Positions 35,008 to 55,747 of a stretch of 64,000 bases of DNA are shown here, piece by piece. Under the pieces are notes generated by a model. The model was not told the DNA's origin. It searched no databases and was given only the letters and a program-made list of their open reading frames with translations. This DNA is from an uncultured Verrucomicrobiota bacterium (GTDB lineage Bacteria; Verrucomicrobiota; Verrucomicrobiia; Limisphaerales; UBA8199). The stretch spans positions 26,069-90,068 of the forward strand of contig CAZZFF010000004.1 of assembly GCA_964653485.1 (NCBI GenBank), read 5' to 3'. A program made the position numbers and the translations under genes. Each line of letters begins with the position of its first letter. Positions within the stretch are counted from its first letter, which is position 1.

Positions 35008-35030
35008 GATGTTGACAGCACGTGACGAGT

Positions 35031-36182: not shown

Positions 36183-36313
36183 CCTGATTTTCTACCTTTA
36201 CTTGTCCCCAAACGCAAGGCTATATTCAGATATTGCCTGATGAGTAGCAAGACTTGGCTACCGCATGGCTGGGCGGCTACGCATGGAGGCTCACCTCATG
36301 TGCTGCTCGGGGC

Positions 36314-37330: not shown

Positions 37331-38190
37331 AAACCGGTTGCCGCCCGCCATTGGTCGAAACCGATGCCCCAAACCTCGAACGTGGCCAGGCCCAAAAAGC
37401 CATCCTCGGTGCTGCCGCTGCCACTCGTCTCGGCGGGGATCAGAACCTCGCGCCAGATGCCGGGCGCGGCTCCAATGGGCGCATCATACACCACGTTCCT
37501 CGGCAAGATGCCGATATAGGCATCCGCTGTCCCCATCGCAACGCCGTCCGCGTAATCATCCCAACCGAAGGCCCCGGAGCTGTTCACGGCCCACAGTTCG
37601 CAGTTCGCCCGGAACCCGGCGCGGTAGCGGTCCAGCTTGTAACGCCCGCGATAGGCATAGGTCATCGATTCGTAGCCGCCCACGTAGCCCTCGAAATCAG
37701 GGATGCGCGACAACCATCCGGGCAGATATACCCACCAACTCGCCTGGCACAACCGGAAGAAGTACTGCCGCGCGTTAATGGTGTCGCCTGGGGTGTTGGG
37801 ATAGCTGCCGACGCATCGCGCCGCATCCGAGAGCCACATCACGCTCTCGCCGCTCGGCGCGCTCGCCGTTCCGCCGCCGGCGGCGCCGCCCGGCCAGTAA
37901 TTGTAGCCTCCGCTGGGCGTCGCCCCATAGGTGTCCACACCGTACACGAGCGGGCAAGGGGGCGCGGGGTCGTAGTCATAATTCGGCGCGCTCGGATAAA
38001 TGGCATCAGCCCACGTGAGCGCCTGCACGCCGGAGATCGCCCCCCAGGCATCCTCCCCAGCCCCATATCCTCCGGTCCCATAGCTCAGCGATTGCCCCGC
38101 CTCGACAATTGGCCCGGTCGGCGCGCCACTCCATTCACGGCATGGGCTGATGACGAGCTCTTTGGCCGGAGATTGGGCGGGCGTGTTCAT
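37327..38190 (-). CDS. Hypothetical phage tail-module protein
   Basis: 287 aa, Gly/Tyr/Trp-rich. It starts 2 nt after the 38193 gene and overlaps the GT9 gene. Confidence 0.45.
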   Translation of the reverse strand: MNTPAQSPAKELVISPCREWSGAPTGPIVEAGQSLSYGTGGYGAGEDAWGAISGVQALTWADAIYPSAPNYDYDPAPPCPLVYGVDTYGATPSGGYNYWPGGAAGGGTASAPSGESVMWLSDAARCVGSYPNTPGDTINARQYFFRLCQASWWVYLPGWLSRIPDFEGYVGGYESMTYAYRGRYKLDRYRAGFRANCELWAVNSSGAFGWDDYADGVAMGTADAYIGILPRNVVYDAPIGAAPGIWREVLIPAETSGSGSTEDGFLGLATFEVWGIGFDQWRAATGL

Positions 38191-38192
38191 GC

Positions 38193-40877: not shown

Positions 40878-40880
40878 AGT

Positions 40881-40961
40881 CAAAAGGCAAAAGGAAGAGG
40901 GCGGAAAGAGGAACGCTGTGCGGTGCTGGTGTCATTTGAGTCTTTAGCATTCATCCTTTCA
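40881..40961. repeat. Heptamer-period tandem repeats in a phage intergenic spacer
   Basis: caaaagg/caaaagg/aagaggg/cggaaag/aggaacg (40881-40915) and tctttag/cattcat/cctttca (40941-40961). Confidence 0.7.
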
Positions 40962-41849
40962 TGGAATCTGCGTCGAGCGCGCCCAGGCAGCCATCTGCTG
41001 CGCCATTGCGGCCTGTTCGCCCTGGAGTTGCGCCTGCCGGGCAATCACCGTCCTCATCAGGCCGACCATTCCATCCACGGTCCTGGAGGCGCCGCTAATC
41101 ACATCCACCGCCTGCTTCAGCGCATTTACGTGTCTGTCCTGCATCTTGCCTATTTCCACCAGCAGCGCCTTGATTGCAGGGTCCACACGGTCCTGAGCGG
41201 ACGACAAGTCCCGGTCCTGTGCCGCCCATGCCTGTCCTGAGCCCGTCGCGGCTTGGACCGTCTGGCTGGAGTCGGCACCGACGGCCGCTCGATTCCGGGT
41301 CCCAAGGGCGCCTGGAGGCACAGCCTGCGTTGCCGCGGCCACCGGGCTTCGAGCCGGCGGCCTGGCCGCTGTGGCCAAGGGAGATTCCCCTGTCGCGCCC
41401 GTCTTTGCCTCGGACGCCGCGAAGTGCGCCGCTGCCAGATCACGCTCAACCGCCCCTGCGCGTCGGTCGGCTCCAGGCAGCCGCCACACGTCCATTCGCC
41501 TTGCCCTGGCATCGCGGGCCGCGATTTCGGGTCCTATCGCCCACTCCTGGGCCGCGTCAGAGGCCGTGTTGCCGGCTGCCGGTGGTTTGCTTTCCGGGTC
41601 CTTTGAGGGCCGCGTGAACTCCTCATGCAAACGTTGACTCCATTGTTCGCACGCCTTTTGCGCGTCCTCGGCCCCCCGAGCCATCCCTTGGAGCGACTCG
41701 GCAATACTTGCGTCACCGGCCGTGCTGTCAAAGACACGCTGCAACCTCCGGGCTGCGTCGCTCGTCTGGTTCAGGGCCGCCGCGGCAAGCTTGCCTCCGG
41801 GTGTGTCGGCCGTCGTCTCGATCCGGACCTCAAGGCTTTGGTTAGGCAT
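40959..41849 (-). CDS. Ala/Gln-rich helical phage protein (possible short tape-measure or internal protein)
   Basis: 296 aa with low-complexity helical ends (QAQLQGEQAAMAQQMAAW), located between the fibre and hub genes. Confidence 0.4.
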   Translation of the reverse strand: MPNQSLEVRIETTADTPGGKLAAAALNQTSDAARRLQRVFDSTAGDASIAESLQGMARGAEDAQKACEQWSQRLHEEFTRPSKDPESKPPAAGNTASDAAQEWAIGPEIAARDARARRMDVWRLPGADRRAGAVERDLAAAHFAASEAKTGATGESPLATAARPPARSPVAAATQAVPPGALGTRNRAAVGADSSQTVQAATGSGQAWAAQDRDLSSAQDRVDPAIKALLVEIGKMQDRHVNALKQAVDVISGASRTVDGMVGLMRTVIARQAQLQGEQAAMAQQMAAWARSTQIP

Positions 41850-41876
41850 ATAAAAAGGAGAGGGCGAGGAGACTCT

Positions 41877-44800
41877 TCATTTGAGGCCGAGGAAGGTGCA
41901 GTTCGTGAATGAATTGCCGTACTGGATGAACGTGAATGCCGCCAGATTTGTCACGCTGAGCGTCCCTTGACTGCTGATGCTCGCAGGGAGAGTGCCAATG
42001 ATTGGCGAGCCGCTGCTATTGGTCACAAGGCAGACGCATGTGTTGACGGCCGAGAGATTGGCATTGATCGGCGCGCTGAAGGTGAAGCCGGCGGACGCAC
42101 TGTAAAGCGTATATGGCTTCTGGAAGTTCGGAATGAGGCTGCCGGCATTAGTCGGCCAATAAAGCGAGTTCGGGTTCAGGTTTGTAAGCCCAGCGCCGCT
42201 GCCAATGTAGTTGGTGCTGGCAATGGTGCCATCCGGCCCCACAATTGTCGTCCCGTTGGTCGCAGCAATTCCGTTGGTAAACACGGGCATGGTCCTGGAC
42301 GCCCAATCAACCAGGATCGTTCCGAGGCCGCCACCATACAGATGTGCCACATCCGCCGCTGAAATCGCTGTGGAGTAGAGTCTGACATCGGCGACCAAAC
42401 AGGTGCTGTACAGGGCATCTGTAATATCGGCGCCGCATACAAATGACCCAAGTTGCGCCGCAGAATCGAGACTCCCGGGAGGACTGCCGGTGTTCACGGT
42501 GACGGTCTGGGCTTGGCCATCCGTGTACATCGCCACCCTCCCCCACCCCGACTGCGTGCCGTCAAACACGAGGGCAAAGTGGTGCCACAAGCCGTCTTTA
42601 GTGTACGGAATGAAGCCGGTTGCACTCCCGCTGTCGCAGATCAGATAAATGGTTGAGCCACCGTCGTAAGTGAGGAAGCGATGACCCGACGCACTGAAAC
42701 CGACGTAAGGGATTTTCCCTCCCGATGAGACGTTGAACCAGAATGCGATCGTCAAACCACTGCCGCCTCCTACCAAACCGGCGACGCTGCCAGAGCACTG
42801 ACCATACTGAGAACTCGTGCCCACCAATTGCAGCGACCTGCCGAGTGCCGCCGGCGCCGAGGATGACCACGCCGGCGCCCCGTAGAGCGCCATCGCATTA
42901 CCGTTGCCAGACTTGTCCAGCGCCGTCGCCCCGCTCCCATCATTGAGGGGCCACCACCCTGCGGGCGCCGGCCATACACCAGCGAATGAAGGCCAGATCA
43001 GCGATTCCCCAAGGCCGCTAAACGCGACACTGGCAAGAGAGTTCGTCGCTGCTTTGACGGCGTTGGTCGCGCCGATGAGCGTCTCGATGGCGCTGCCGTC
43101 CGAGGTGCTCAGGGCGACCGTGCCGCTGGTCGTGACTGCGCCGCCGGAGGTCAATCCGGGCGCGGAGACATTGACGCTCGTCACCGTGCCACCGCCCCCA
43201 CCCCCGCCACTGGATGCAATCACAAGCTGCCCGGAGTTGGTTGTCACCGTCACGTTCGCTCCAGCTTGGATGGGAAGCAGGCCCCCGTTGAGGTTTGAAA
43301 TGCCGACGCCACTCCCGGCCAAACTGCCTACGTAGGACGGAACCTGCCCCGCGACCGACTGCTTGAGGTCAAGATAATAGGTGGTTCCGTTCACCACCGT
43401 AGGTAGTTGCCCAACCACGATTGGCGCCGCGTTGCCCCCGCGCAGCCCGCTAAAGCGGACCAACCCCGTGGATGAGAGCTCCGTGGACAAGTTGAGCAGG
43501 GACGCGATATAAGCATGACCCGCCGCGCTCGGATGCACATTGTCCGCGGATAACATCGTCGCGCTGTTCCAGCCGGCGCTCACGTCCGTGCATTGGGCCG
43601 CCCCGAAAGCCCCCTCGACCCATGAGGCAAACGCCGCCTGGCTCGCGTATGAATCGGGAATGTTCAGCAGATGATGCGTCGGGATCGACGAGGCCAGCAA
43701 ATTGCTCACGATCAGCACGTAGTTCGTCTCGTAGATCGAGGCGTTGACCCCGGAGTTGAGGTCGTTGCGCCCGATGCACAGCACACATCCCGAAGGCCGG
43801 ATGTAGTTCAAGAGATAAGGCATGCACTGCTCCAACTCCACCGTTCGGTCCCCGGGCCCCGCATAATTCACGTAAGGCACGGACGCCGATTGCGCCGCCA
43901 AGGCCGAAAATCGATTCGTTATAGCCGCGTTCCCGACCGCGTAGCCGACGGTTTTTGAATCGCCCAAAAAGGCCACGCAGTTCGTCGGCGTGAAGGTCGT
44001 CACCTTGATGGACCCAATGTCAATCTCACCAACGTTGTTGAAATTCCAGATCGTGAAATTCCCTGCGTTGGGCATCGAGCTATAAACCCCGCCAACCAGC
44101 GCCGCCAGTTGGTCCGTTACCGAGAGGCTATTGCCATACAACGTACTCAGGTTTGTGCAGCTAATGGTGGCCACGTTGCCCCGCTGACTGAACCTCTCCA
44201 GTATTGGCGTGTTCTGCGCTATGTTAAACGGGTTAAGACCCGACGTCACATACAGATTGGGGCTGCTGCCACTCAGCGTCAGGAAATCAAGATGGCCGAC
44301 AGAATCCAGCATGCCGCACATAGACTCAGAGTACCACGGGTTGATCGTCTTCTTGCCGATGTAAGGAAACCCAGGAGACCAACCGCTCGGAGCGGACCTG
44401 TTCGTCGCGATGATCTCGACGTCGTAATTCTCATCCATGTTCGTCAGCCCAACCAGCGACAAGGTCTGGTTGTAATCATTGACCCCCTGCGGGAACACGA
44501 TGTATCCCCCCGCCGCCACGCTTGGCGTAAAGCCGCTGTAGCTGAAATCTGACAGGTCGCTCCAGTTGGTCTTGTAATAGAGCACTCCGACGCTCCCCGT
44601 GGCCGCCGGTAAAAGCAGCGATGGAATGACCAGCGCCGATGCCGAAGCCACAGCCCCCGCGATGCTCAGGGGGTTAATTCCCCCCGGCGCATTCGTCGGA
44701 AAGGTCCCGAGGGGCGCAAACGCCGTCGCCGGCAGCCCGTTCGTCGCGGTCTGCGCCGCGCCGACTGAATCAAAGGCCGAGGCTGCGGAGTAGGCAGCGG

Positions 44801-45617
44801 ACCCCAGCGCGTTGGTCGCTGCTTTCACCGCATTGGTCGCGCCCGTGAGCGTTTCGACGCCGCTGCCGTCCGCGGTGCTCAGGACGACCGTCCCGCTCGT
44901 CGTGACAGCGCCGCCCGAGGTCAGCCCGGGCGCCGAGACATTGACGCTCGTCACCGTCCCGCCTCCTCCTCCGCCCCCCGTCGCCGCGATGGAGAGTTGC
45001 CCGCCGTTTGTCGAGAGGATGATGTTTGCCCCAGCCTGGATGGGCAGAGCGGCTCCGTTGAGATTGGTGTTGCTCGGGAATAGATTGAGCGTTACCCCGG
45101 CCAGGGCGTTGGTCCACAAGAACGTGTTCTGGCCCTCAACCCCGCGCTTTGGAATAGCGGCGGCGTTCACCGCGTTCGTCGTGTATGGGACCGTGATCGT
45201 CCATGCCTGCCCGATCCCCTCGATAACCACTCGGTAATCACCCGGCATCAAGTTGGTTGCCGCCACCCCGCCGACCGGCTGAAGCGTGATCGGCAGGCCG
45301 GCATACAGGGACTCGGAATCCGAGAACAGCGGGTCCAGCGCGGTGACGGTGATGGGGTTATTGAGCACCTGGCCCGTAAAGTTGTAGGTCGAGAAGAGCA
45401 CCGCCGTCTGAGCGGCAGGGGACAGAGGACAGAGCACAGAGCACAGAAGGAGCGAGATTACCAATAACCATTTTTCAATTCTCAATTCCCGATTTCCGGG
45501 TGCGCATGATTGAGAATTGAGCATTGCGAACTTGCAATTGGCAATTCTCAATGGCCCATCCCCGCGACCCGCGTAACTTCCGGTTAAAACCATCCGTGTC
45601 ATCGTCTCAGTTTTCAT
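41877..45617 (-). CDS. Tail fibre/spike-like protein with duplicated fibre module, SGNH esterase domain and LamG-like domain
   Basis: Two copies of the module ...LPIQAGAN...GGGGGGGTVTSVNVSAPGLTSGGAVTTSGTV.LST... are present. SGNH blocks are FLGDSKT / IGRNDL / DNVHPS. The C-terminal LNDGSGATALDKSGNGN...LTIAFWF matches a concanavalin/LamG pattern. The N-terminal ~72 codons are built from DNA repeats, and an alternative GTG start lies at 45401. Confidence 0.65.
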   Translation of the reverse strand: MKTETMTRMVLTGSYAGRGDGPLRIANCKFAMLNSQSCAPGNRELRIEKWLLVISLLLCSVLCPLSPAAQTAVLFSTYNFTGQVLNNPITVTALDPLFSDSESLYAGLPITLQPVGGVAATNLMPGDYRVVIEGIGQAWTITVPYTTNAVNAAAIPKRGVEGQNTFLWTNALAGVTLNLFPSNTNLNGAALPIQAGANIILSTNGGQLSIAATGGGGGGGTVTSVNVSAPGLTSGGAVTTSGTVVLSTADGSGVETLTGATNAVKAATNALGSAAYSAASAFDSVGAAQTATNGLPATAFAPLGTFPTNAPGGINPLSIAGAVASASALVIPSLLLPAATGSVGVLYYKTNWSDLSDFSYSGFTPSVAAGGYIVFPQGVNDYNQTLSLVGLTNMDENYDVEIIATNRSAPSGWSPGFPYIGKKTINPWYSESMCGMLDSVGHLDFLTLSGSSPNLYVTSGLNPFNIAQNTPILERFSQRGNVATISCTNLSTLYGNSLSVTDQLAALVGGVYSSMPNAGNFTIWNFNNVGEIDIGSIKVTTFTPTNCVAFLGDSKTVGYAVGNAAITNRFSALAAQSASVPYVNYAGPGDRTVELEQCMPYLLNYIRPSGCVLCIGRNDLNSGVNASIYETNYVLIVSNLLASSIPTHHLLNIPDSYASQAAFASWVEGAFGAAQCTDVSAGWNSATMLSADNVHPSAAGHAYIASLLNLSTELSSTGLVRFSGLRGGNAAPIVVGQLPTVVNGTTYYLDLKQSVAGQVPSYVGSLAGSGVGISNLNGGLLPIQAGANVTVTTNSGQLVIASSGGGGGGGTVTSVNVSAPGLTSGGAVTTSGTVALSTSDGSAIETLIGATNAVKAATNSLASVAFSGLGESLIWPSFAGVWPAPAGWWPLNDGSGATALDKSGNGNAMALYGAPAWSSSAPAALGRSLQLVGTSSQYGQCSGSVAGLVGGGSGLTIAFWFNVSSGGKIPYVGFSASGHRFLTYDGGSTIYLICDSGSATGFIPYTKDGLWHHFALVFDGTQSGWGRVAMYTDGQAQTVTVNTGSPPGSLDSAAQLGSFVCGADITDALYSTCLVADVRLYSTAISAADVAHLYGGGLGTILVDWASRTMPVFTNGIAATNGTTIVGPDGTIASTNYIGSGAGLTNLNPNSLYWPTNAGSLIPNFQKPYTLYSASAGFTFSAPINANLSAVNTCVCLVTNSSGSPIIGTLPASISSQGTLSVTNLAAFTFIQYGNSFTNCTFLGLK
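43034..43310. repeat. Intragenic direct repeat, copy 2 (fibre module)
   Basis: About 270 bp, roughly four-fifths identical by eye to 44806-45075. It shares the exact run gagacattgacgctcgtcaccgt. Confidence 0.8.
44806..45075. repeat. Intragenic direct repeat, copy 1 (fibre module)
   Basis: Partner of 43034-43310. Confidence 0.8.
45421..45448. repeat. Heptamer tandem repeat
   Basis: gacagag/gacagag/cacagag/cacagaa. On the coding strand it is translated as LLLCSVLCPL. Confidence 0.75.
45476..45554. repeat. GAGAATT-type repeats forming an inverted repeat
   Basis: caattctcaatt (45476-87), attgagaattg (45509-19) and caattctcaat (45542-52). The second and third copies are exact reverse complements of each other. 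Confidence 0.7.
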
Positions 45618-45647
45618 AATTCATGATTCATACTTCGTGATTTCTCC
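45613..45647. repeat. Heptamer tandem repeat at the fibre ORF start
   Basis: ttcataa/ttcatga/ttcatac/ttcgtga/tttctcc. Confidence 0.75.
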
Positions 45648-45654
45648 CCGCCCC

Positions 45655-46062
45655 TTACGCCGGCACGGCACCTTGCACCGTGTAGCGAAACTTCGTGCTG
45701 ACCCCCGTTTGCTCGACGCACGCCACCTCAACAATGACGGCGCTCAAGAAGCTCGCGATCATCGTGCCATCCGGGTCGTTGATCCCCAGGGAGCAATTCA
45801 TCGGCACCGTGGCGGCGTGGCCCCACACAAACCCGTCGGCCGCGGCTTGACTCGCGTGGACCCGCGCAACCGTCCATGAGAAACTGGTCTCCCGGTTGCC
45901 GAGGCCATTTGCGAAGACGCGCGCCGCCAGGGCGAGCTGCTCGGTCTGGATTTGCCGCGCCTCGGCTGGGATTGGCGGAGGGTCAATGATGAAATCTCCC
46001 GCGCCGTCATCGCCCAGGGTGACAGGCGTCGCGCTCGGGATTGGGGTGGCGATTATTTGCAT
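45655..46062 (-). CDS. Hypothetical phage protein
   Basis: 135 aa, co-oriented in the tail module and flanked by repeat-filled spacers. Confidence 0.45.
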   Translation of the reverse strand: MQIIATPIPSATPVTLGDDGAGDFIIDPPPIPAEARQIQTEQLALAARVFANGLGNRETSFSWTVARVHASQAAADGFVWGHAATVPMNCSLGINDPDGTMIASFLSAVIVEVACVEQTGVSTKFRYTVQGAVPA

Positions 46063-46136
46063 GAAAGTATGAAGGATAAAGGATGAAACCGGAGCAGCGC
46101 GGGTGACTTCTTGTTTTAGCCTTTAGTCTTTAGCCT
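46061..46136. repeat. Two heptamer tandem repeat blocks in one spacer
   Basis: atgaaag/tatgaag/gataaag/gatgaaa (46061-46088) and ttttagc/ctttagt/ctttagc/cttgcgc (46114-46141). The blocks are partly complementary to each other. Confidence 0.75.
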
Positions 46137-46345
46137 TGCGCCCGTGCAGGACTGGGCTGCGCGGTTTGTTTAGCTGCCGCGGCTTGCGGCGCTATGGGAG
46201 GCGGCAGCGCCGGCGCGGAGGCGGCATCCTCCGCCTGGCCGCGCGCGATGAGCATGCGGGCAAGGTTCTCGGGCAGGTCGGCCGTTGAGCCGGCGGCGAT
46301 GACCTTGCCGGCATGGGGAAGGGGGTATTTGGCTCTTATGTTCAT
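46130..46345 (-). CDS. Small hypothetical phage protein
   Basis: 71 aa with an Ala/Pro-rich C-terminus, in the position where tail chaperones usually lie. Confidence 0.4.
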   Translation of the reverse strand: MNIRAKYPLPHAGKVIAAGSTADLPENLARMLIARGQAEDAASAPALPPPIAPQAAAAKQTAQPSPARAQG

Positions 46346-46383
46346 GGGAAAGGATAAAGACTAAAGAATAAAGGATTAAAAGG
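46346..46383. repeat. Heptamer tandem repeat
   Basis: ggaaagg/ataaaga/ctaaaga/ataaagg/attaaaa. Confidence 0.75.
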
Positions 46384-46390
46384 GTCAGGG

Positions 46391-47377
46391 TTAGGCGCTG
46401 AAAACCAGGAGCGGTTGCGGGGCGCCGGCGCTGAAGGTCATCGTGGTGACAAAGCCCACTTCGCCCGTCCCGAGCCTGGTCCCGCCGAACTCGAAGCCGG
46501 CGCCGACGGCATCCGCGTTTTTGAGGGTGATTGACTTGCTGTTTGGCCCGGTGAGGACGAGGTCGGCGCCGGTTGTTCCGTTGGCGAATTGCTGGCCGAG
46601 CAACCGGCCGGTATTGACGCCGATGGCGGCGTCGATCTGGCTGTGCGTAGGCCCGTAAGGACGGCACCTCGCCATGAAGGCAACGCTATCGAGCTTGTAG
46701 GCCCGCACGAGAGTCTGCACGGGCAAGGGAGAGTACTTGATGTCGCTCGTGATCACCCATTGGTCCTCCGCTTCCACAGGCAGGCCCGCACTGCCGCCGC
46801 CGAAGCCCGCGACCGTTCCCCACACGCCCGTCCACGCGCCACGCTGGTAGTCAGTGCCGGATTGCTGGCCGCCCGGATCGGAAACCCCGCCGGGGATGAG
46901 CGTGTAGAGTGCTCCGGCCGCCCCGAGCGAGGCGCCGGTCGCCAGAATGCAGGCGATCTCGACAGGCCCGAACAGCGGCTTGTCGATGCCCAGGTGCAGG
47001 TCCGGGTGCTTGGTCACCGCCGCGCGGGGGAAGGAATAGCTGCGTCCGTCCGGGCTCCAGATGACCGCCGGAGTGTCCGCCGCCCCAGCCGGGTTATGAG
47101 GGCGCGTCCCGATCCCCAGCGCGCCGATCGTGCTTCCCACGCTGACCCCCAGGTAACGGGGAAAAACCAGCGGCAGGGCCGACCAGTTATCAAAGGGTGT
47201 CAGGCTGACAATGACCTCCGCATTGGCTTGCAGCGCCGTGACTCGGCCGAAAAACCCGCTCGCCAAATCCACCGCCTGCTGCTTGACCTCCGCCTTGATC
47301 TCCCCGTTCTCTCCCTCCGGCCAAAGAGCGCTGCCGCCCATGTATATTTTGCCCGGTCCCGCGTATATTGTGCTCAT
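46391..47377 (-). CDS. Putative major tail tube protein (double-size)
   Basis: ATG 47377 (MSTIYAGPGKIYMGG...) inside ORF 46391..47821; 328 aa. It has a tube-like beta pattern and lies after the head-tail genes. Inference only. Confidence 0.45.
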   Translation of the reverse strand: MSTIYAGPGKIYMGGSALWPEGENGEIKAEVKQQAVDLASGFFGRVTALQANAEVIVSLTPFDNWSALPLVFPRYLGVSVGSTIGALGIGTRPHNPAGAADTPAVIWSPDGRSYSFPRAAVTKHPDLHLGIDKPLFGPVEIACILATGASLGAAGALYTLIPGGVSDPGGQQSGTDYQRGAWTGVWGTVAGFGGGSAGLPVEAEDQWVITSDIKYSPLPVQTLVRAYKLDSVAFMARCRPYGPTHSQIDAAIGVNTGRLLGQQFANGTTGADLVLTGPNSKSITLKNADAVGAGFEFGGTRLGTGEVGFVTTMTFSAGAPQPLLVFSA

Positions 47378-47406
47378 ATTTTGTTTGGACTTTTTTTTAA
47401 GTGCTC

Positions 47407-48162
47407 TCAGAATTGCTGCCGAACCACCGAACTCCTGAACATGCCCGGCTTGTACGCCGCGTACCGCAACACCGGCCCGGCCGGCTGAAACGGCGCGCTG
47501 TACTTGGTTGCCCGTGGATTGCCAGGCCCCGGAAAACTCCCGTCCCACGTATAAAAGATGTCCGCTCCGATGGTCGCGGACGAAAGGCTCACGCCGGACG
47601 GCTGCGTTTGGGCGGCGGGCTGGCTCACCCGTCCCACAGGTGTGGCGGCCGCCTGCATCTGGAGTTTGATCCGGTAAGCGACCAACCCCGCGAATCGCTG
47701 CGCATCCCAAATGGCATCGCGAAGGGTGCCCTCGCCGACCACGCGCAGGTTCTCCGTCCGCCAGAGCCCGCGGATGGCCTCCCGCACCGCGGACATCACC
47801 CCTGCCCCGCCAATCTCCCACTGGTGGGAGCTGTCCAGGATGAACTTGGAGACCTCCTCCGCGCTCATTTGGGTGCCCGTGGCCGGGGCGTAGTTGAGGT
47901 TCGGCTCTTCCAGCGCCACGCAGGACAACACCAGGTTGCCCACCGGGCCGGACACATTGGGATGCAGGACCTCGAAGGCCGGCATCTCGACGAGGATGCC
48001 GCAGCCGCTCCGGCCGTTCCGAGGAGCTGTATAAACGGTGGACCAGTCAATCTCGCTTTGAAGCCGCAGCTTGCGGTACTGGATAACGTTGATGAATCGC
48101 AGCCCCGGCTCCGCAAGCAGCCCTTGGGTCAAATCCTCCTGTAACTCGACGAAATCGTTCAT
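47407..48162 (-). CDS. Hypothetical phage head-tail joining / neck protein
   Basis: 251 aa, starting 3 nt downstream of the preceding gene. The C-terminal IFYTWDGSFPGPGNP...YSAPF resembles a chitobiase-C-type Ig-like module. Confidence 0.45.
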   Translation of the reverse strand: MNDFVELQEDLTQGLLAEPGLRFINVIQYRKLRLQSEIDWSTVYTAPRNGRSGCGILVEMPAFEVLHPNVSGPVGNLVLSCVALEEPNLNYAPATGTQMSAEEVSKFILDSSHQWEIGGAGVMSAVREAIRGLWRTENLRVVGEGTLRDAIWDAQRFAGLVAYRIKLQMQAAATPVGRVSQPAAQTQPSGVSLSSATIGADIFYTWDGSFPGPGNPRATKYSAPFQPAGPVLRYAAYKPGMFRSSVVRQQF

Positions 48163-48165
48163 GAC

Positions 48166-48690
48166 TCACTCCGGTATTTGTGGATTGGCCCAGGGCGGCA
48201 GGGACTTCTCCGGGACCGGCCACTGAGCCTCCGGCGTCGGCACCGGGTGGGTTCGGTTAAGAAGCTTGTTCTCGCTGTTCCATTGGCCGCTTTTCGGACT
48301 GGGGACGCCGGCCCGGCCAACACCACCCTTCTTTGGCTCGCCGGGCGGCTCAATCGCAATCCGCTGCTGTGCTATCCGGTCGAGCTTGGCCAGCGCCTCG
48401 TCGTGCGCGTCCCGCCGGTCTCGAGTCTGGAGACGCTGCAATTGCGAGAAGGCCGTCAGCCAACGCCACCGCGCCATGGCGACAATTTCAAGATCAAGCT
48501 GGTCGGGCGTCGTCCCATCCGCACCGAGCCGATAGCCTCCCGCCCGGATGGCGCCGCGCACCGCATTGACAACCCGCGCCAAAATCAGCGGCAGCGCATC
48601 GCCCGCTCCCTGGATGCTCTTCAGGGCCGCCTGTTCCTCCACTGTGAACTCTCCCAGCACGTCTTCGACTGTTACAGTCTTCCAAGCCAT
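48166..48690 (-). CDS. Putative head-tail connector/adaptor protein
   Basis: ATG 48690 (MAWKTVTVEDVLGEFTVEEQAALKSIQG...) in ORF 48166..48894. It has a gp6/DUF1320-like N-terminal pattern and fits the position. Confidence 0.4.
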   Translation of the reverse strand: MAWKTVTVEDVLGEFTVEEQAALKSIQGAGDALPLILARVVNAVRGAIRAGGYRLGADGTTPDQLDLEIVAMARWRWLTAFSQLQRLQTRDRRDAHDEALAKLDRIAQQRIAIEPPGEPKKGGVGRAGVPSPKSGQWNSENKLLNRTHPVPTPEAQWPVPEKSLPPWANPQIPE

Positions 48691-48799
48691 AGTCAGTTGA
48701 TGGTGAATGGTTGCACTCCGCGCTCCGCACTCGATTGGCCCCGGCGGCGGCAAACCAGCCAACACCCGCCGCCGGGGTCTGTTCCCCCGCCCCTCGCTA

Positions 48800-49324
48800 C
48801 TATGGGTAGCGAATCGGAATAATCTTTTTGACCACCCAGGCCGAACAGTTGGTGACCAGGCCGTTGCCCGAATTGGTGATCGAGTAGATGCCAAGCCAGT
48901 TCGCGAGGCCGACCACGCGAGCGTCCAGGTTCGTACACCACACCACCTGGTTGGTCCCGCTGGTGGTCAGCGTCAGCGACCATTGCGGCGAGGTCTCCCA
49001 ATCCGTCGTCCGAGGCGGCCTGTCGGTCCCCGCCCGGCACAGGCCGATCGTCAGAGTCTGGTTTGTGCTCGAGGCGCCGGCGCACGAGAACCAGAAGCCC
49101 AACTGCTGATAGCTGGCCGTATTGATTGCCCCGCCAGTGCAGTACCCGATGCCGTTGGTGCCAACGCTGTTCGTAGGCGCCGACACATAACTGACCCCGG
49201 TTGCAACCTGATTGGTGATGTTGAAGCTCTCCGCCCTGGCCGCCGGCAATAATGCCAGCGCAAGGGCGGCAGCGGCGAATCGCAACGCGTTCTTCATGTT
49301 GTTTGCTCTTTGGGTGTTTTCCAT
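48800..49324 (-). CDS. Secreted Cys-rich beta protein encoded between capsid and connector genes
   Basis: A Sec signal MKNALRFAAAALALALLPAARA|ES sits inside MENTQRANN-MKNAL.... The mature part has six Cys. AGGAGG lies upstream of ATG 49324. Confidence 0.5.
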   Translation of the reverse strand: MENTQRANNMKNALRFAAAALALALLPAARAESFNITNQVATGVSYVSAPTNSVGTNGIGYCTGGAINTASYQQLGFWFSCAGASSTNQTLTIGLCRAGTDRPPRTTDWETSPQWSLTLTTSGTNQVVWCTNLDARVVGLANWLGIYSITNSGNGLVTNCSAWVVKKIIPIRYP

Positions 49325-49341
49325 CGGTGATCCTTTTCCTC

Positions 49342-51585
49342 CTACTGGCTTGTAATGCACAGGCCGCCCCGGTTGTCCCCCACCGCGGCTCCGAGCATGA
49401 CCTGGATGCGCCATTCGGCATAACCGCCCGTGTGATTGACATACTGCACCAGCACCACCGAAATCCCGATGTCGGGGTCGGTGATGGTCGTGACGGAGCC
49501 GTAGCTTGCGCCAGGCAGGGCCTGCGTGTAGTCGTTGCTGAGCCGAGTTTTGGCCACGACGGCCGCCTTGTGCAAGACCATCCCCACGAGGTTTGGCGTC
49601 ACGCCCGGCGCGGTCAGGTTCGGCGCCTCGATCGGCTCGAAGCCTGCCAGCTTGGGCAGGCGGTTCTCCGTCACGATCTGCGGCGATTGCTGCCCGGCGA
49701 AGAAAGTCACCAGGCTCGGGTCCGTGGCCAGTTGCTCGAAGTAATTGCTCGTCAAGAGCGCCACCCTGTCGTTGATCGGCACCTCGTTCGGGTTGAAGAT
49801 GGCCGCAATCTTTGTGAGCGTGGAGCGCGCGAAGTCCGCGATGCCGACGGGGTAATTGGCATAAGCCACCGGGACCTTCGCCCCGTTGGTCTGGGCGTAG
49901 GCGTTGTAATTGGCCGGCGTGAAGAGCTTGTATATCTTCTCGACGAAGTACTTGGCCAGGGCATAAGCCGCCGCCGGGGCCTGCTCGTCGAACAACCGGC
50001 GCATCGTGCTGGCCAGCGTGTTCGCGTCGAAGACAATCGGCACGCCCACGTGCTCGTCGAGAGTGATCAGGACGTCCTTGGTCTGCGCGGCGCTGACGGT
50101 GCTCCAGCCCAGCGGGCGGCCGGTTGAATCCGGGGCCGTGTTGTAGCTTTGGACGGCCGGGACCACCACGATGCGCGTGGCTTCAGTCTGCCTGAATTGC
50201 GCCGGGGTGTCGCTGAAGTCGGTGAAAACCCGCGAGATTACCGGGAACGCCAGTTTGAACAACTGCAGCGTCCGCTGGGCCACCAGCGTCCCGCTCAACG
50301 TGCCCAGGTTGGCGTCGCTCACGTCCGCCGCCATGAGCGGCATGTCGCGAAACTCGTTCCACCGCGGCGCGATTTCGCGCGCGTAGAGGGCGCCCATCTG
50401 TTTGGCGTGCTCGCCTTTCTGCTGGAATCCCGCGAACGACAGATCACGGATGCCGGAGTTTTTCGCGACCAGGGCGCCGTAGGCCTGGATGACGCGCGCC
50501 GCTCCTTCCTTGGCTTCGAGCCTGGTTGTGCCGGCGGTCGCCGACGCCTCCCGCGTGATGCTGCCGGCCGCCAGGGCGGCGTTGCCCGGCATGGCCTGCA
50601 ACGTGTCGAGCATCTCCGCGTTATCGGCGCAGAGCCGCATCCACTTGGCCTGGAGCGGTTCATCCTGGGCGGGAATCGCCCCGCGCTTTACCGCGGCGGC
50701 GACCGCCTCCTGTGCGGCGCGCCCGCGCTGCGCCCTGAGCGCGTCGTCCTTGCGCTCGTTGTCCTCCTCGAGCTCCGCGATGCGAATCGCCTGCTCGACG
50801 TTTTTCCGTTCGGCCTGCTTGGCCGTGAGTTGCTGTGCCGCTTCGGCATTGCCCGCCGCATTGGCGGCCCGCAATCCCTGGAGTTCGGTGTCCAGCTTTT
50901 GGAGTTTGGCCGTCAAATCGGCCAGCTTCTCTTTCATGTTGTCCTTTGTTTCGTGGCCGCCCGTCAGGGAGTCCACTGGGTTGTCTGCGTCGCCCGCGCC
51001 GGCGGTTGCCCGCGCGGAAATCGTTCCCGCCCGCTTCGCCCACAAAGGGGCGATGTCGTGAAATGCCGGGTCGTTGACCAGGCTCCCGAAGTTGAGCCCC
51101 GCATCCTCCTTGCACATCACTTTTGCCGGGTCGGTTTGAGTCACGAAGAACACAGGGGAAAAGGCGCGGTAATTCCGGCCCTTGATCGCGTCGGCCCCGG
51201 CCTGGCTCATCTCCGCCCGGCAATAGACCCCGGGCGCCGGCGAATCGCGCCACACGAAAGCCAGCGGCCAGGCGCTGGCCGCCTCGTCCTTGTGATCGAA
51301 ATCGAAAAAGGCCCGCTGCTGCCCCCGCGCATTCACCGCCTCCAACTGCGCCTCCAGCGCCGCCGCCGCCGCCCGGTCCACTTCCACCGTCCGCCGCACC
51401 GGCTTGTCCCCCTGCATAAACCAGCACCGATGCACCCCGCCCGGCATCACCATGAACTCGGCGATGCTGCCGGCGTTCATATCTTGAGCGCCGCTCGGCG
51501 CGGCGACGGCCACGCGGGCCGCCAGGGGCAAGGCTGAAGGCTGAAGGCTAAAGGATGAATCAAGATGTTCGCATTTGTCGCTCAT
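49342..51585 (-). CDS. Fusion of Mu gpI-type prohead protease, coiled-coil scaffold and major capsid protein
   Basis: The N-terminal FMVMPGG...FFDFDHKDEAASAWPLAFVWRDSPAPGVYCRAEMSQAGADAIKGRNYRAFSPVF matches the Mu-like prophage I protein. The central part is a coiled coil (KEKLADLTAKLQKLDTELQGL...). The C-terminal ~330 aa are capsid-like. An alternative start is ATG 51480. Confidence 0.7.
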   Translation of the reverse strand: MSDKCEHLDSSFSLQPSALPLAARVAVAAPSGAQDMNAGSIAEFMVMPGGVHRCWFMQGDKPVRRTVEVDRAAAAALEAQLEAVNARGQQRAFFDFDHKDEAASAWPLAFVWRDSPAPGVYCRAEMSQAGADAIKGRNYRAFSPVFFVTQTDPAKVMCKEDAGLNFGSLVNDPAFHDIAPLWAKRAGTISARATAGAGDADNPVDSLTGGHETKDNMKEKLADLTAKLQKLDTELQGLRAANAAGNAEAAQQLTAKQAERKNVEQAIRIAELEEDNERKDDALRAQRGRAAQEAVAAAVKRGAIPAQDEPLQAKWMRLCADNAEMLDTLQAMPGNAALAAGSITREASATAGTTRLEAKEGAARVIQAYGALVAKNSGIRDLSFAGFQQKGEHAKQMGALYAREIAPRWNEFRDMPLMAADVSDANLGTLSGTLVAQRTLQLFKLAFPVISRVFTDFSDTPAQFRQTEATRIVVVPAVQSYNTAPDSTGRPLGWSTVSAAQTKDVLITLDEHVGVPIVFDANTLASTMRRLFDEQAPAAAYALAKYFVEKIYKLFTPANYNAYAQTNGAKVPVAYANYPVGIADFARSTLTKIAAIFNPNEVPINDRVALLTSNYFEQLATDPSLVTFFAGQQSPQIVTENRLPKLAGFEPIEAPNLTAPGVTPNLVGMVLHKAAVVAKTRLSNDYTQALPGASYGSVTTITDPDIGISVVLVQYVNHTGGYAEWRIQVMLGAAVGDNRGGLCITSQ
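51530..51564. repeat. Heptamer tandem repeat
   Basis: aaggctg/aaggctg/aaggcta/aaggatg/aatcaag. Confidence 0.8.
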
Positions 51586-51597
51586 TGGTTTTTCCTT

Positions 51598-53361
51598 TCA
51601 GTCAGGAGGAGTATTAGGATTAGGATTGAGAGCGGGAGGCAGGGTGGAATGCCGTGATGGGAGTCCCTCCGCGGCCTTCCCGTTTGCGTCCGCATCCTCA
51701 CCCGCGTTCGACGATGGGTTCTGGGCTGTGGACTGTGGACTCTGGGCTGTGGACTCCTTTTCCCCCCCGACGGTTTCCTCTCCGGGTTGCGGCAGCGGTA
51801 TCCCATGACGCCTGTAAAACCAGGACCTCGGCATGGGCACCCCGGCCGCCAGAAGGGTCGAGTCTCGTTGCGCGTTGGCCAGAGTGTCCTGCTCCTTCCT
51901 GGGCACGGGCCGAAACTCGGGCGCCTCGCTGTCCTGCCCGTAATTCAGGAGCAGGATGCTTCGGACCAGTTGGGCATTGAGCACGCTCGCGGCGAAATTC
52001 GCGGCGGCCTGGACAACCTCCGCTTTGACGTCGGCATGCACCTGCCCCAGCGCCCGGCTGCCCCCGTGTTTGGACACGTCTCCCGTTAAGGTCTGCCCCA
52101 GGATGAGCAGGTCCATCTGCTTCTCCGCCCGGTCGAGCATGTCGCCCTGGGGTGAATGGTCCCCCATCTGGGCGGCTTCTTTCAATTCGAGCGTCGTGCC
52201 GGCCGGGAACGCGGCCCAGGCGTTGCTGCCCATCCGCTCGAGCATCGAGCAGATGGCGTCGACCGTCTCCTGCGGGGCGGCCGGGTCATAATTCACCCAT
52301 CGAAACGGAAGCCCGAAGACCTGTCCCAGGTTCAACAGCCAATCGGCGGAAAAATTCGCCGCGCACCACCACCATGCCAACGGCCTCAGCAATGCGCCCC
52401 CGAGCGCGGTCCCGCTCTTGGCCTTGCAAATCGAGATGAGGAACTTGTGGTCGGGAAACCTCCGCACGGAGTCGGGCAACGGTTGCGAGCTTGTGCTTTG
52501 CCACACCCCCGGGTTGAGTTTGCATCCTCCCCCGGCGCCGCGGGTTCCAGCGCCGTTCCTCCCCTGTCCCAGTTCCGCCCTCAACCCCAAGCACCCGTCC
52601 AGGGTCCAGGTATAACAAGTGGGATGCACCCAGTACGTCGCCCGCGGGGCCACAATGTCCCCAAGCTCGCCGGCGGGTCTCACCTCCCAATCCACCTCGA
52701 GGACGGTCTGGCCCTTGCCCCAGGCGTCGAGCACGTCGTAGATCGTTCCGCTCAAGCCGTTCTCGTCCTCAGCCGGCGCCGGCCTCATCCGCCTGAACGC
52801 GCTGCTCACCATTCTCGCCTTGTCTTTGGCGGAGTTGCTCGGCGGTTGGTCCTCCTCCTGCCAGGGCGCCAGAGCCCAGTCCATGGCCATCACCGCGCGC
52901 TTCAACTCGTTCAAGTTCTTGGCCAGCCGCGGCGACGTATCCTCCATCAGGTCGAACAACTCCCAGGCCTGAACGTGACTGCCCGCCAACGCCCCGCGCA
53001 GCACCATCTCGATGTATTGGGGCGTAATCGCCGCCAACTGCGGCAGCAGCCAGCGATAGGCCGCCTGCGGCCGCAGGACCTTCGCGAGACTCCGGCTCAA
53101 CCCATCCGGCAGCGTCGAGCTTCCACCTTGCCCGTCCGCCTCAACGGGACCCCGGCCCGGCCTCATGCCCAACCTGGCCGCCGCCAAACTCACCCCGGCC
53201 GGCGCCCGCCTCCGCCATTCCGGCACCTCGGTCTCCCGGAGTCCGGACCCCGCCCGCCCAAACCGCCCCGCCGCCGGCCCGCCTTCCGCGCGGCGGCCAG
53301 GCCCCGCGCCTCCCAGTTCCATGTTGTGTAGCATTGCATTCACCTGGAACTGTTTTCGCAC
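51598..53361 (-). CDS. Phage portal protein, Mu gp29-like (DUF935)
   Basis: AITPQYIEMVLRGALAGSHVQAWELFDLMEDTSPRLAKNLNELKRAVMAMDWALAPW matches the DUF935 N-terminal signature. An alternative start is ATG 53166. The C-terminal tail is encoded by tandem DNA repeats. Confidence 0.75.
   Translation of the reverse strand: MRKQFQVNAMLHNMELGGAGPGRRAEGGPAAGRFGRAGSGLRETEVPEWRRRAPAGVSLAAARLGMRPGRGPVEADGQGGSSTLPDGLSRSLAKVLRPQAAYRWLLPQLAAITPQYIEMVLRGALAGSHVQAWELFDLMEDTSPRLAKNLNELKRAVMAMDWALAPWQEEDQPPSNSAKDKARMVSSAFRRMRPAPAEDENGLSGTIYDVLDAWGKGQTVLEVDWEVRPAGELGDIVAPRATYWVHPTCYTWTLDGCLGLRAELGQGRNGAGTRGAGGGCKLNPGVWQSTSSQPLPDSVRRFPDHKFLISICKAKSGTALGGALLRPLAWWWCAANFSADWLLNLGQVFGLPFRWVNYDPAAPQETVDAICSMLERMGSNAWAAFPAGTTLELKEAAQMGDHSPQGDMLDRAEKQMDLLILGQTLTGDVSKHGGSRALGQVHADVKAEVVQAAANFAASVLNAQLVRSILLLNYGQDSEAPEFRPVPRKEQDTLANAQRDSTLLAAGVPMPRSWFYRRHGIPLPQPGEETVGGEKESTAQSPQSTAQNPSSNAGEDADANGKAAEGLPSRHSTLPPALNPNPNTPPD
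51611..51757. repeat. Tandem repeats inside the portal 3' end
   Basis: attagg/attagg/attgag (6-bp period, 51613-51630, encoding NPNPN) and ctgggct/gtggact/gtggact/ctgggct/gtggact (7-bp period, 51721-51755, encoding STAQSPQSTAQ). Confidence 0.75.
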
Positions 53362-53385
53362 ACTTCCCCCCGGCCGCCAAACACT

Positions 53386-53413
53386 CCATTGGCTCCATTG
53401 GCTCTATTGGCTG
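53386..53413. repeat. 9-bp tandem repeat upstream of the portal gene
   Basis: ccattggct/ccattggct/ctattggct. Confidence 0.8.
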
Positions 53414-53706: not shown

Positions 53707-54879
53707 TCAGGCCATCGAAGCACCTTCATCCTCTTCAGCATCGTTAAGGAGATACTCCTCCGCGGCGCCTGTTTCTTCGCTATAGTTAAACTCCACCTTG
53801 GACTGCTTCACGATCTCGTCCAAAATCGCTGGGAGGTGATGTTGCCTCACAGCAGCCTGAAAGCACTCTCGCAGCCTGGGTACGTTTATAATCTCCTCGA
53901 TGCATGCCATGTAGGATCGCACGATGGCATCAATGCCGTAGAGGGCTTTGGCCCCCTGCGCAAGCCGCCCGCGCAACTCTTCTTCTCCGTCCTCAGACTT
54001 GATAACGAACGAAACGGGAAGTCGCTCCAACTTGTCTATGTCCAAAAAGTACTTTCTTACGTCAAGCGTTTCGGTCACCTGGAAGAATCTTCCGAGCGGC
54101 TTCATCACGAAGTCAATGCCGCCATCATTGGCGTTGGTCCGTCCCGTCTTGAAGAGCTTCAACTGCTCCTTCCTTAGGTCCGCCCGGGTGAAGCCGAAAT
54201 AGACGAACTGGTCGTGATAGAAGTACTTCAAGATGGCGAAGCTCACGATCTCGAAGAGGCGCGCGTCAACGTTCGGCGCCAGCAAACCAAGGATGTATGC
54301 CTGGACGGCATCCGGTGAAGCGCGCACTGCCTCCTTCAGTTTGGTGCATGCTTGAATGAAAGTGTCGAATGAGTTTCGCTTCGCGGCAACGTACGCGTCG
54401 ATAACGCCGATCACCGCCTCTGCCACGTTATACGTCTTCTTCCCCACCTTGACGCGCAAGAGGTTTGAGTTAATCCAATAGCGGTTGGTCTCCGGGTCCC
54501 GCAAGATGGGAACATATTGGCAGGACGGGAAGAACTTCTTGAACTCTTCGTTCATCCTGTGGTTGAGGCCGTGATTTTGCAGCTTTGCGCCGAATGGTAG
54601 CTGGCGTTGCCGCTTGAGAAGGGAACTGAAGACCGCCCCACCGTACTTCGAATAGTCGCCCTTCTTGTGAAATCCTTTTGCGACGTAGTCCTCGACGAGC
54701 ACGTAGATCGCGTACAGGTTGGCGAAACTCCCACGGGATTTCGATCCACGATTTGCCGCCTTGGTCTTGTGGTTGATGTATTGCAGCAGAGTTCCCTTTT
54801 CGAGGATATCCTCCTCCGCCCCGGCAAAGTGGCGGACCAGGACCCCTCGAATGGTCTCAGTGAACGCGTGCTCGATCAT
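53707..54879 (-). CDS. Putative type II restriction endonuclease
   Basis: ~390 aa immediately downstream of, and overlapping, the methyltransferase gene. NANDGGIDFVMKP resembles PD-(D/E)xK/Mrr-like catalytic cores. Sequence composition is lower-GC. Confidence 0.55.
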   Translation of the reverse strand: MIEHAFTETIRGVLVRHFAGAEEDILEKGTLLQYINHKTKAANRGSKSRGSFANLYAIYVLVEDYVAKGFHKKGDYSKYGGAVFSSLLKRQRQLPFGAKLQNHGLNHRMNEEFKKFFPSCQYVPILRDPETNRYWINSNLLRVKVGKKTYNVAEAVIGVIDAYVAAKRNSFDTFIQACTKLKEAVRASPDAVQAYILGLLAPNVDARLFEIVSFAILKYFYHDQFVYFGFTRADLRKEQLKLFKTGRTNANDGGIDFVMKPLGRFFQVTETLDVRKYFLDIDKLERLPVSFVIKSEDGEEELRGRLAQGAKALYGIDAIVRSYMACIEEIINVPRLRECFQAAVRQHHLPAILDEIVKQSKVEFNYSEETGAAEEYLLNDAEEDEGASMA

Positions 54880-55747
54880 ACAAGGCAAGGGGCAAGGTCG
54901 AATCGAGCTCGTTTCTCCTAATCCCATTCTTGCGGAGGTAAGTCTTGTTCGGTCTCTCGATCGGTTTGCCATTGAAGTGAGTCTGGATGCCCAACCGCCG
55001 CAAGCCGATCTTCACATAGGGCTCCTCTCTGTCGATGCCCACGGATCTCCGCCCAAGTTTCTGAGCCACATAGCTCGTCGTAAAGGTGCCAGAGAACGGG
55101 TCAAGCACTAAGTCTCCAGGGTTTGAACTCGCCTTCAAAACACGCTCAAGCAGCGCCACCGGTTTCTGAGTCGGGTGCTCCTCGTATTCCTCCATCCGGT
55201 ATCGGACTCGCGGGATCTCCCAGACGTTTCCCGGCACCTTTTCGCTGCTGTAAACACTTGGAACTGGCTTCCGGTAGTCAATGAGCCTCCGCTGGGACCC
55301 GGTCTTCGCGTCAACCAGGATGTCTTTCGCGTTAAACGTGTAGCACTCCGGATCCTTGACGCAGAACAAGATTGGCTCGTAGAGCGACCCGAAGTACCGC
55401 TTTGCCTGCACCCCGGAACTGTCGTAAAACCACACAATCCGAGACATGATCGTCAGTCGCGACCTGACGTGAATATCGAAGAACGGCATGCACTGCGTGG
55501 ATGCCATGAGGTAAAAACTCCCAGTCGGCTTAAGTTTCTGCACGCACAGGTCAATCCAAACGCGGCACCAGTCCAAGTACTCCTCCTCACTTGGCCACTT
55601 GTCCTTGTGCCCGTGAAAATCCTTGCCGATATTGTAAGGCGGGTCGGCGAAAACGAGGCTAACACTGCAGTCTGCAACATGCGAACGCAACGCCTCCAGC
55701 GCATCACCCCAAACCACCTTGTGGTCGGCGTTCTCAAAAACCGTCAT
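54857..55747 (-). CDS. DNA methyltransferase, beta-class N6A/N4C (N6_N4_Mtase family)
   Basis: Motif IV FADPPYN precedes motif I VLDPFSGTFTT, with EHPTQKP between them. Confidence 0.85.
   Translation of the reverse strand: MTVFENADHKVVWGDALEALRSHVADCSVSLVFADPPYNIGKDFHGHKDKWPSEEEYLDWCRVWIDLCVQKLKPTGSFYLMASTQCMPFFDIHVRSRLTIMSRIVWFYDSSGVQAKRYFGSLYEPILFCVKDPECYTFNAKDILVDAKTGSQRRLIDYRKPVPSVYSSEKVPGNVWEIPRVRYRMEEYEEHPTQKPVALLERVLKASSNPGDLVLDPFSGTFTTSYVAQKLGRRSVGIDREEPYVKIGLRRLGIQTHFNGKPIERPNKTYLRKNGIRRNELDSTLPLALYDRARVH

Follow-up and report, generated by a model that had tools for sequence, protein, structure and literature searches.

The subject of this work is a single open reading frame (ORF) in a 64,000-nucleotide stretch of DNA (the window; positions 26,069 to 90,068 of contig CAZZFF010000004.1, assembly GCA_964653485.1) from an uncultured Verrucomicrobiota bacterium. 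The ORF follows a gene for a Mu-type portal protein, an order that holds in all related loci, and about ten structural genes lie downstream of it, to roughly 35.0 kb. Its product, with a calculated mass of 80.1 kDa, joins a Mu gpI-type prohead protease, a scaffold and a predicted HK97-fold major capsid protein in one frame. Long spurious ORFs are common in the window because of its 63% G+C content, but this ORF is real and no chance product of GC-rich DNA, since its G+C content at third codon positions (GC3) is 0.85, it matches Pfam family PF10123 (Mu-like_Pro) above threshold, it matches PHROG profiles for head proteins and it has 75 database homologues. The PF10123 match extends over residues 46-362 with 50 bits (E 4.1e-13, against a curated gathering threshold of 25.2 bits) and takes in profile positions 3-316 of 330; it is the only Pfam match of the protein, and the homologues score similarly. 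PHROG 328 (head maturation protease) matches residues 81-363, and PHROGs 267 and 283 (major head protein) match residues 432-702.

Three modules are visible in an AlphaFold2 model of the fusion protein built on 60 homologues, with a mean predicted local distance difference test score (pLDDT) of 81; Met1 is absent from the model, so that true residue numbers equal model numbers plus 1. The boundaries that emerge (Table 1) are close to the ~190, ~200 and ~330 residues given for protease, coiled coil and capsid protein in the original prediction, made from the DNA letters alone, which had also located the ORF and its motifs FDFDH (residues 94-98) and AFSPV (residues 141-145) correctly, without giving the strand (minus). 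These motifs carry His98 and Ser143, respectively, both of which are invariant in alignments of 60 and 61 sequences with identities down to 33%, as expected for a prohead serine protease; proteolytic activity is predicted from this conservation. The scaffold module is made up of two very long helices forming a coiled coil (residues 215-301), a conserved RGAIPAxD motif (residues 300-307), and further helices (residues 309-418). Its assignment rests on homology and composition, because the PF10123 model, which spans Mu gpI and gpZ, reaches residue 362; together with the long helices this agrees with the gpZ-like coiled coil described before.

That the C-terminal module would be a major capsid protein was part of the same description, and an HK97 fold is indeed found there. 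In a Foldseek search against the PDB the modelled domain matches solved HK97-fold capsid proteins at a probability of 1.0; there are 199 matches at E<=0.001, of which the top 50 are all capsid or encapsulin shells. Mycobacteriophage Douge gp8 ranks first (E 6.5e-13), ahead of capsids of the T7-like, T5 and phi29 phages and of encapsulins. Against standalone viral capsid proteins of 289-297 residues in BFVD the target-normalised TM-score is 0.83-0.86. On the basis of the model the C-terminal domain is an HK97-fold capsid domain, for which shell formation is predicted.

Table 1. Positions of the fusion ORF, its modules and motifs, and the adjoining portal gene, in window coordinates.
Feature	Residues	Window positions	Strand	Basis or remark
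Portal gene, Mu-type	 	51598-53361	minus	PF06074, E 1.5e-69; stop 12 nt before the fusion ATG
AAAGGA, Shine-Dalgarno-like, 7 nt upstream of annotated ATG	 	51593-51598	minus	Overlaps portal TGA stop (51598-51600)
Whole fusion ORF	1-747	49342-51585	minus	ATG to stop, 747 codons (747 aa); stop codon 49342-49344
N-terminal tail, disordered, low confidence	1-31	51493-51585	minus	AlphaFold2 and alignment
Beta-rich domain, Mu gpI-type prohead protease	32-184	51034-51492	minus	PF10123, AlphaFold2
His98 codon	98	51292-51294	minus	Invariant
Ser143 codon	143	51157-51159	minus	Invariant
Motif P180-L-W-A-K184, end of protease domain	180-184	51034-51048	minus	Alignment
Linker, poorly conserved	185-216	50938-51033	minus	Disordered at residues 185-214; A-rich leader of internal start at its 3' end
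AAAGGA, Shine-Dalgarno-like, 4 nt upstream of internal ATG	 	50942-50947	minus	Hexamer identical to that of the annotated start
Conserved in-frame ATG (Met217), proposed nested start	217	50935-50937	minus	Alignment, leader
Scaffold module	217-419	50329-50937	minus	PF10123 and AlphaFold2
Junction motif P416-L-M-A419-A420-D421, proposed maturation site A419|A420	416-421	50323-50340	minus	Motif conservation, low-pLDDT hinge
Hinge, low confidence	419-423	 	minus	AlphaFold2
Major capsid domain (alpha/beta), HK97 fold	420-747	49345-50328	minus	AlphaFold2 (domain from residue 424), PHROG, Foldseek

The N-terminus varies within the family. Close homologues (P0003, P0011, P0046 and P0047) have a Cys/His-rich N-terminal extension that is longer than that of the window protein (MSDKCEHLNPDGTFKGGFDGCVLHM...GHSEESAKKICG), about 45-60 residues of which have apparently been lost in the window (51493-51585), and in more distant homologues DUF6582 (PF20223) precedes the protease.

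The homologues are drawn from JGI, ENA, NCBI and Logan assemblies and most of them span 94-100% of the query at identities of 32-90%. One frame is kept in about 70 full-length homologues over this entire range of identities and in independent assemblies, with no stop between scaffold and capsid domain in any of these or in the window, so that the fusion into one uninterrupted ATG-to-stop frame of 747 codons, as originally read from the window, is genuine and no assembly artefact. Thirty fused loci were found on IMG/VR contigs, many of them 37-44 kb long, and about 25 more in species-representative genomes, nearly all from Verrucomicrobiota. One of these genomes is that of the cultured Chthoniobacter flavus Ellin428 (L062, NZ_ABVL01000029.1), where a weak match of terminase type (25% identity) is located a short way upstream. 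When the capsid domain only was the query of an exhaustive search, 490 cluster representatives were obtained; the protease domain is also present in 81 of the top 150, and at least some of the shorter representatives are truncated contigs. Comparison of the fusion gene with a copy that is 87% identical yields a ratio of nonsynonymous to synonymous substitution rates (dN/dS) of 0.105, with dS 0.57, and the gene is under purifying selection.

Split protease and capsid states were seen only at greater distance from the fusion family. In the unfused relatives L035-L040 an I/Z-type gene of 330-380 residues is followed by a small ORF and then by a capsid gene of roughly 310 residues, and the standalone capsid homologue P0142 has 333 residues. 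The distribution of split and fused states, including those of the isolated phages described below, is consistent with a gene fusion in evolution together with displacement of prohead protease genes, to which these genes are known to be prone. A few copies are irregular: L048 and L050, which come from long-read metagenome-assembled genomes (MAGs), give interrupted tblastn matches, and proteins P0009 and P0050 are 1081-1086 residues long. These oddities could reflect long-read frameshift errors or real insertions in linker or scaffold.

The linker between protease and scaffold contains a second candidate start. Among the 65 homologues that have the PLWAK motif, 63 carry a linker methionine at the start of the coiled coil, corresponding to Met217 of the window protein and typically the sole Met in the 60 residues past the protease domain, while the linker around it is otherwise unconserved; the context is DNMKEKLADL in the window and NTMTPEEIAALQAK and similar in other homologues. 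Close relatives keep AAGGA upstream of this codon though the encoded residues differ (ETKDN, NQGGV, TKGQTS, NKGQNS), and selection on the nucleotide sequence is therefore indicated. The predicted pairing with the anti-Shine-Dalgarno sequence upstream of the internal ATG averages -5.3 kcal/mol over 25 loci, against a mean of -2.3 kcal/mol at 300 in-frame ATGs elsewhere (Mann-Whitney p 2e-5, a value that overstates the independence of the data because the sequences are related). In addition, the 24 nt before the internal ATG are the most A-rich segment in each ORF; the median percentile is 0.5%, and 1.2% when a larger set (32 loci) is taken. Both the Met and the A-rich leader are shared by unfused I/Z-type relatives at the protease/scaffold boundary, and an in-frame scaffold start within the protease gene, at the position that Met217 occupies in the fusion gene, has been documented for Mu and proposed for Pseudomonas phage PaMx73 (PMC4378225). 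The most economical reading of this pattern is that the ancestral I/Z nesting probably survives in the fused gene. Initiation at Met217 is predicted to give a scaffold-capsid chain of 531 residues and 57.0 kDa, likely the major product, with the 80-kDa protease-scaffold-capsid chain as the minor one.

Five shorter homologues (P0158, P0166, P0187, P0210 and P0115, roughly 480-550 residues) begin at the internal Met and were considered as proof of independent scaffold-capsid genes. They were rejected as such because in the one case inspected, the 1.7-kb contig L041, the gene caller had simply picked the internal start; the C-terminus of the protease lies in frame upstream, and GGAG is found 5 nt before the internal Met.

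The reading that we consider probable, taking all of its parts together, is that the ORF is a head-assembly gene of a family of tailed-phage or prophage-like elements of Verrucomicrobiota, in which a Mu I/Z-type protease/scaffold gene has been fused in frame to an HK97-fold capsid gene, with translation from two starts followed by cleavage. In such a scheme the annotated ATG would give the 80-kDa chain and Met217, with its own AAAGGA, the 57-kDa chain, and the two would co-assemble on the Mu-type portal with their coiled-coil scaffolds facing inward. A few full-length chains would bring the protease into the shell, because it is covalently tethered to them. The protease would then cut, probably behind A183 and A419, the alanines of two P-[L/I]-x-A motifs. 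Protease and scaffold would thereby be stripped off, leaving the mature form of the capsid protein, about 35 kDa, which starts near Ala420 (predicted length 328 residues, 35.2 kDa).

P-[L/I]-x-A is found at each of the two boundaries between modules. In P180-L-W-A183-K184 the proline is found in 60 of 60 sequences, the leucine in 55, the tryptophan in 59 and the alanine in 56, and in P416-[L/I]-x-A419-A420-[D/N] the alanine at 419 is present in 58 of 60; in the standalone capsid homologue P0142, V-Q-A-A-N is retained behind a leader of 26 residues. For proteases of the assemblin type, cleavage occurs behind the Ala of (V/L)-x-A|S sites. Cleavage after A183 and A419 is proposed because of the junction motifs, the motif in P0142 and this site preference, and as exact positions the two sites are tentative, being more doubtful than the overall scheme.

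Besides the relatedness of the sequences noted above, several points weigh against this scheme. The Shine-Dalgarno-like pairing of the window copy itself is moderate, -5.5 kcal/mol, a value that is matched by 25% of windows in the GC-rich ORF, and over 32 unique loci the median pairing percentile is just 0.26; in 13 of these 32 loci the pairing is weaker than -5 kcal/mol, that is, not Shine-Dalgarno-like, and about 8 of the 13 have none whatever. The Lys/Asn/Thr/Glu-rich composition of a disordered linker could be partly responsible for the A-rich leader. The protease domain modelled alone has herpesvirus assemblins as its top PDB matches, at E values (0.16-1) that are not significant. The window copy may not make infectious virions, because the gene cluster around it is without a terminase (see below). 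Finally, the use of both start sites, the ratio between them and the cleavage sites are things that we infer.

Head functions are usually distributed over two or three genes, as in Mu (I/Z plus T), lambda (C/Nu3 plus E) and HK97 (gp4 plus gp5), and the present gene shows that three internal head-assembly functions can collapse into one frame with a Mu-type protease. The relation to Mu is close: its I/Z gene belongs to the same protease/scaffold family (PF10123, residues 46-362 of the fusion protein), and Mu-like phages have a Mu-type portal upstream, as in the fusion locus. In Mu-like phages, however, the capsid gene is separate and often lies behind a small decoration gene, whereas here the capsid domain directly continues the scaffold in one chain; for this domain, sequence similarity to the capsid genes of unfused relatives is undetectable. 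No Mu-type protease-scaffold-capsid fusion was found among 50,697 phage records with the two queries used, nor did we find one described in the literature.

Fusions of protease and capsid protein as such are known. They are an established annotation in actinobacteriophages (PMC5513430) and have been reported as common among siphoviruses with small genomes (PMC9671004), and BFVD holds other full-length fused proteins, for example one of 729 residues from Lactobacillus phage SA-C12, so that the architecture is less unusual than had been implied when the window was first read. As in the gene studied here, the actinophage fusions are one ORF directly after the portal gene, in which the protease forms the N-terminal part and the HK97-fold capsid protein the C-terminal part. 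Gp5 of Microbacterium phage Anseraureola (528 residues) matches Peptidase_S78 (PF04586), with a sub-threshold match to Phage_capsid_4 (PF25209; 20.5 bits, cutoff 27). Its protease is thus of the HK97 gp4 type, in contrast to the PF10123 protease of the window fusion, and the protein is shorter and without a matched long coiled-coil module; a profile comparison (hhalign) of the fusion family with this S78-capsid fusion was not significant (probability 3.8%). The database's precomputed annotations give PF25209 for two family members, P0052 and P0056, but our own Pfam scan of both failed to reproduce it. We found no report in the literature of a nested start in the actinophage fusion genes. Three features set the present gene apart: the Mu I/Z-type protease-scaffold partner, the long coiled coil and the signs that a nested start has been retained.

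Two other assembly systems invite comparison with the proposed products. The scaffolding delta domain of HK97 gp5 is N-terminal, roughly 100 residues long and removed by the prohead protease. By analogy with HK97 gp5 and T5 pb8, both of which have such a domain, the predicted Met217 product would likewise be a scaffold on an HK97-fold capsid protein, to be removed by a prohead protease. The scaffold of the fusion is, however, about 200 residues long and homologous to Mu gpZ, not to the HK97 delta domain, and the protease, which HK97 encodes in a separate gene, is in the same frame here. In herpesviruses UL26 and UL26.5 provide a protease-linker-scaffold chain and a nested, more abundant scaffold, like the products proposed for the fusion gene, and the (V/L)-x-A|S sites of assemblin resemble the P-[L/I]-x-A motifs at its junctions. 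Differences are that the herpesvirus capsid protein is encoded in a separate gene, that UL26.5 has its own promoter where the fusion gene would have only an internal ribosome-binding site, and that the fold similarity to assemblin is non-significant in our comparison.

Isolated phages of Verrucomicrobiota provide split counterparts. Akkermansia phage Chantilly (L004) encodes a PF10123 protease/scaffold, and its protease domain shares 36% identity with that of the fusion protein, but protease/scaffold and capsid are separate adjacent genes, and the capsid sequence is unrelated to the fusion's; BLASTP of the fusion C-terminal domain against the Chantilly capsid protein gave no match. In the Puniceicoccales phage P8625 (L086, NC_029047.1) gp11 is a homologue of the capsid domain, with 26% identity to family member P0046 (E 7e-16), and is encoded by a separate gene (8364-9251) after a ClpP-like protease. 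This protein, the closest relative of the capsid domain in an isolated phage, is labelled 'hypothetical protein', and P8625 and Chantilly taken together illustrate how the prohead protease is displaced around a single lineage of capsid proteins.

The genes around the fusion ORF bear on what the window copy is used for. The head-tail cluster to which it belongs (35000-53400, minus strand) is without terminase, integrase, replication or lysis genes. Host genes adjoin it on both sides: those for ResB/CcsA lie below 35 kb, those for an epimerase and histidine kinases above 55.9 kb. Searches of the window with the terminases of related viral contigs gave no match, and no Walker A motif is present in any ORF between 35.0 and 54.9 kb. 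A 421-residue ORF upstream of the portal gene (53707-54972) was considered as a terminase and rejected: it has no similarity to the L003 terminase, no Pfam or PHROG match and no Walker A motif, and it is absent from relatives. Pfam and PHROG annotation of the structural genes downstream of the fusion gene gave mostly no matches. The same portal-first layout without terminase is found in L043 (fusion 87% identical to the window's), L046 (65%), L044, L045 and L049 (64%) and L047 (54%).

One explanation of these data is that the fusion gene is used by a domesticated terminase-less particle, similar to a gene transfer agent (GTA) or of another kind, that is vertically inherited in a clade of Verrucomicrobiota, and not by an infectious phage. 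Such a particle would account for the recurrence of the portal-first clusters just listed and for the missing Walker A motif, and further points speak in its favour. The window, L043 and L044 share the adjoining epimerase gene (85-90% identical); in a neighbour-joining tree the copies from window/L001, L043, L046 and L049 group together, with L047 just outside and L008 and L003 as nearest terminase-bearing relatives; all cluster genes tested have dN/dS of 0.10-0.25; and a search around the cluster for tRNA genes and att-like direct repeats found nothing convincing. On the other hand, dS of the cluster genes is 0.5-1.0 while that of the adjacent epimerase in the same genome pair is 0.29, and simple co-inheritance is therefore a poor fit. 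The flanks of L046 and L047 differ, a terminase could sit elsewhere in these genomes, outside the regions searched, and the signal of purifying selection could predate inactivation. The cluster may be an element of this domesticated, GTA-like kind or else a remnant that has been conserved, and we regard a vertically inherited particle as rather unlikely, albeit the best placed of the alternatives to the two-start scheme. A terminase-less cluster maintained by selection could nonetheless point to a domesticated phage particle in Verrucomicrobiota. The more far-reaching suggestion, that the gene is the core of a minimal self-contained head-assembly system, with two starts that set the ratio of protease to scaffold-capsid, and that in the window clade, within a terminase-less cluster kept under purifying selection at a conserved site of the chromosome, it represents an unrecognised domesticated phage-derived particle, is a speculative one.

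A further alternative is that the 747-residue polyprotein is the sole product, so that protease and scaffold are part of every subunit and are cut out after assembly. This is what the original prediction had concluded, and it agrees with the uninterrupted and conserved frame, with the good AAAGGA motif at the annotated start and with the annotation of the actinophage protease-capsid fusions as single products. It leaves unexplained, however, why a Met should be kept in 63 of 65 homologues within an unconserved linker, why it should be preceded by an exceptionally A-rich leader resembling a ribosome-binding site and why the identical feature should be found in unfused I/Z genes with a documented nested scaffold start. 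Since the conserved in-frame start lies where Mu I/Z has its nested start and predicts a protease-free scaffold-capsid chain as the probable major product, the notion of a protease in every subunit is probably wrong, and a full-length product alone seems to us improbable, slightly more so than the domesticated particle. The first interpretation of the locus thus holds for the domains and their fusion, is probably mistaken in its stoichiometry and overstated the novelty. An assembly or sequencing error, or the recent loss of a stop codon in a dead prophage, might be suspected from the absence of terminase and early genes in the window cluster and from the broken long-read copies in L048 and L050, but is effectively refuted, and for practical purposes excluded, by the recurrence of the single frame in about 70 proteins from four sources of assemblies (32-90% identity), by fused copies on complete-looking viral contigs of 37-44 kb with terminase, by the dN/dS of 0.105 and by the invariant catalytic residues.

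If the nested start has indeed been kept after the fusion, as the two-start scheme supposes, it would be a simple translational route to few protease molecules per shell by covalent tethering. The fusion gene would then lend itself, as a compact model, to the study of how the protease is encapsidated and the scaffold removed, and it might even yield self-maturing HK97-fold shells from one gene; it is experimentally tractable, and a cultured host strain exists. The assignment of three modules also corrects database labels. JGI lists the window protein (P0001) as 'Skp family chaperone for outer membrane proteins', and among its relatives the names 'phage protease', 'Mu-like prophage I protein' and 'hypothetical' are in use; nowhere is the capsid domain annotated, and prophage finders that rely on capsid hallmarks may therefore miss these elements.

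Three other features of the region may be recorded. Between epimerase and portal genes (53707-55747, minus strand) lie an N6/N4 DNA methyltransferase gene (296 residues) and an unannotatable ORF of 390-421 residues, a pair with lower GC3 (0.69-0.71) than its neighbours that is absent from all related loci and looks like an inserted restriction-modification-like cassette. Within a gene for a GDSL-lipase/LamG protein of 1215 residues, the N-terminus of which resembles phage tail proteins of related contigs, a 260-nt direct repeat (43036-43295 and 44806-45065, 1770 nt apart, 77% identity) suggests that a domain has been duplicated within what is probably a receptor-binding or tail-fibre protein. 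The 3' part of the portal gene (51710-51751) contains two tandem 21-nt units, 81% identical, that encode part of a low-complexity C-terminal tail (…STAQSPQSTAQNP…) and are probably a minor case of slippage in a disordered tail.

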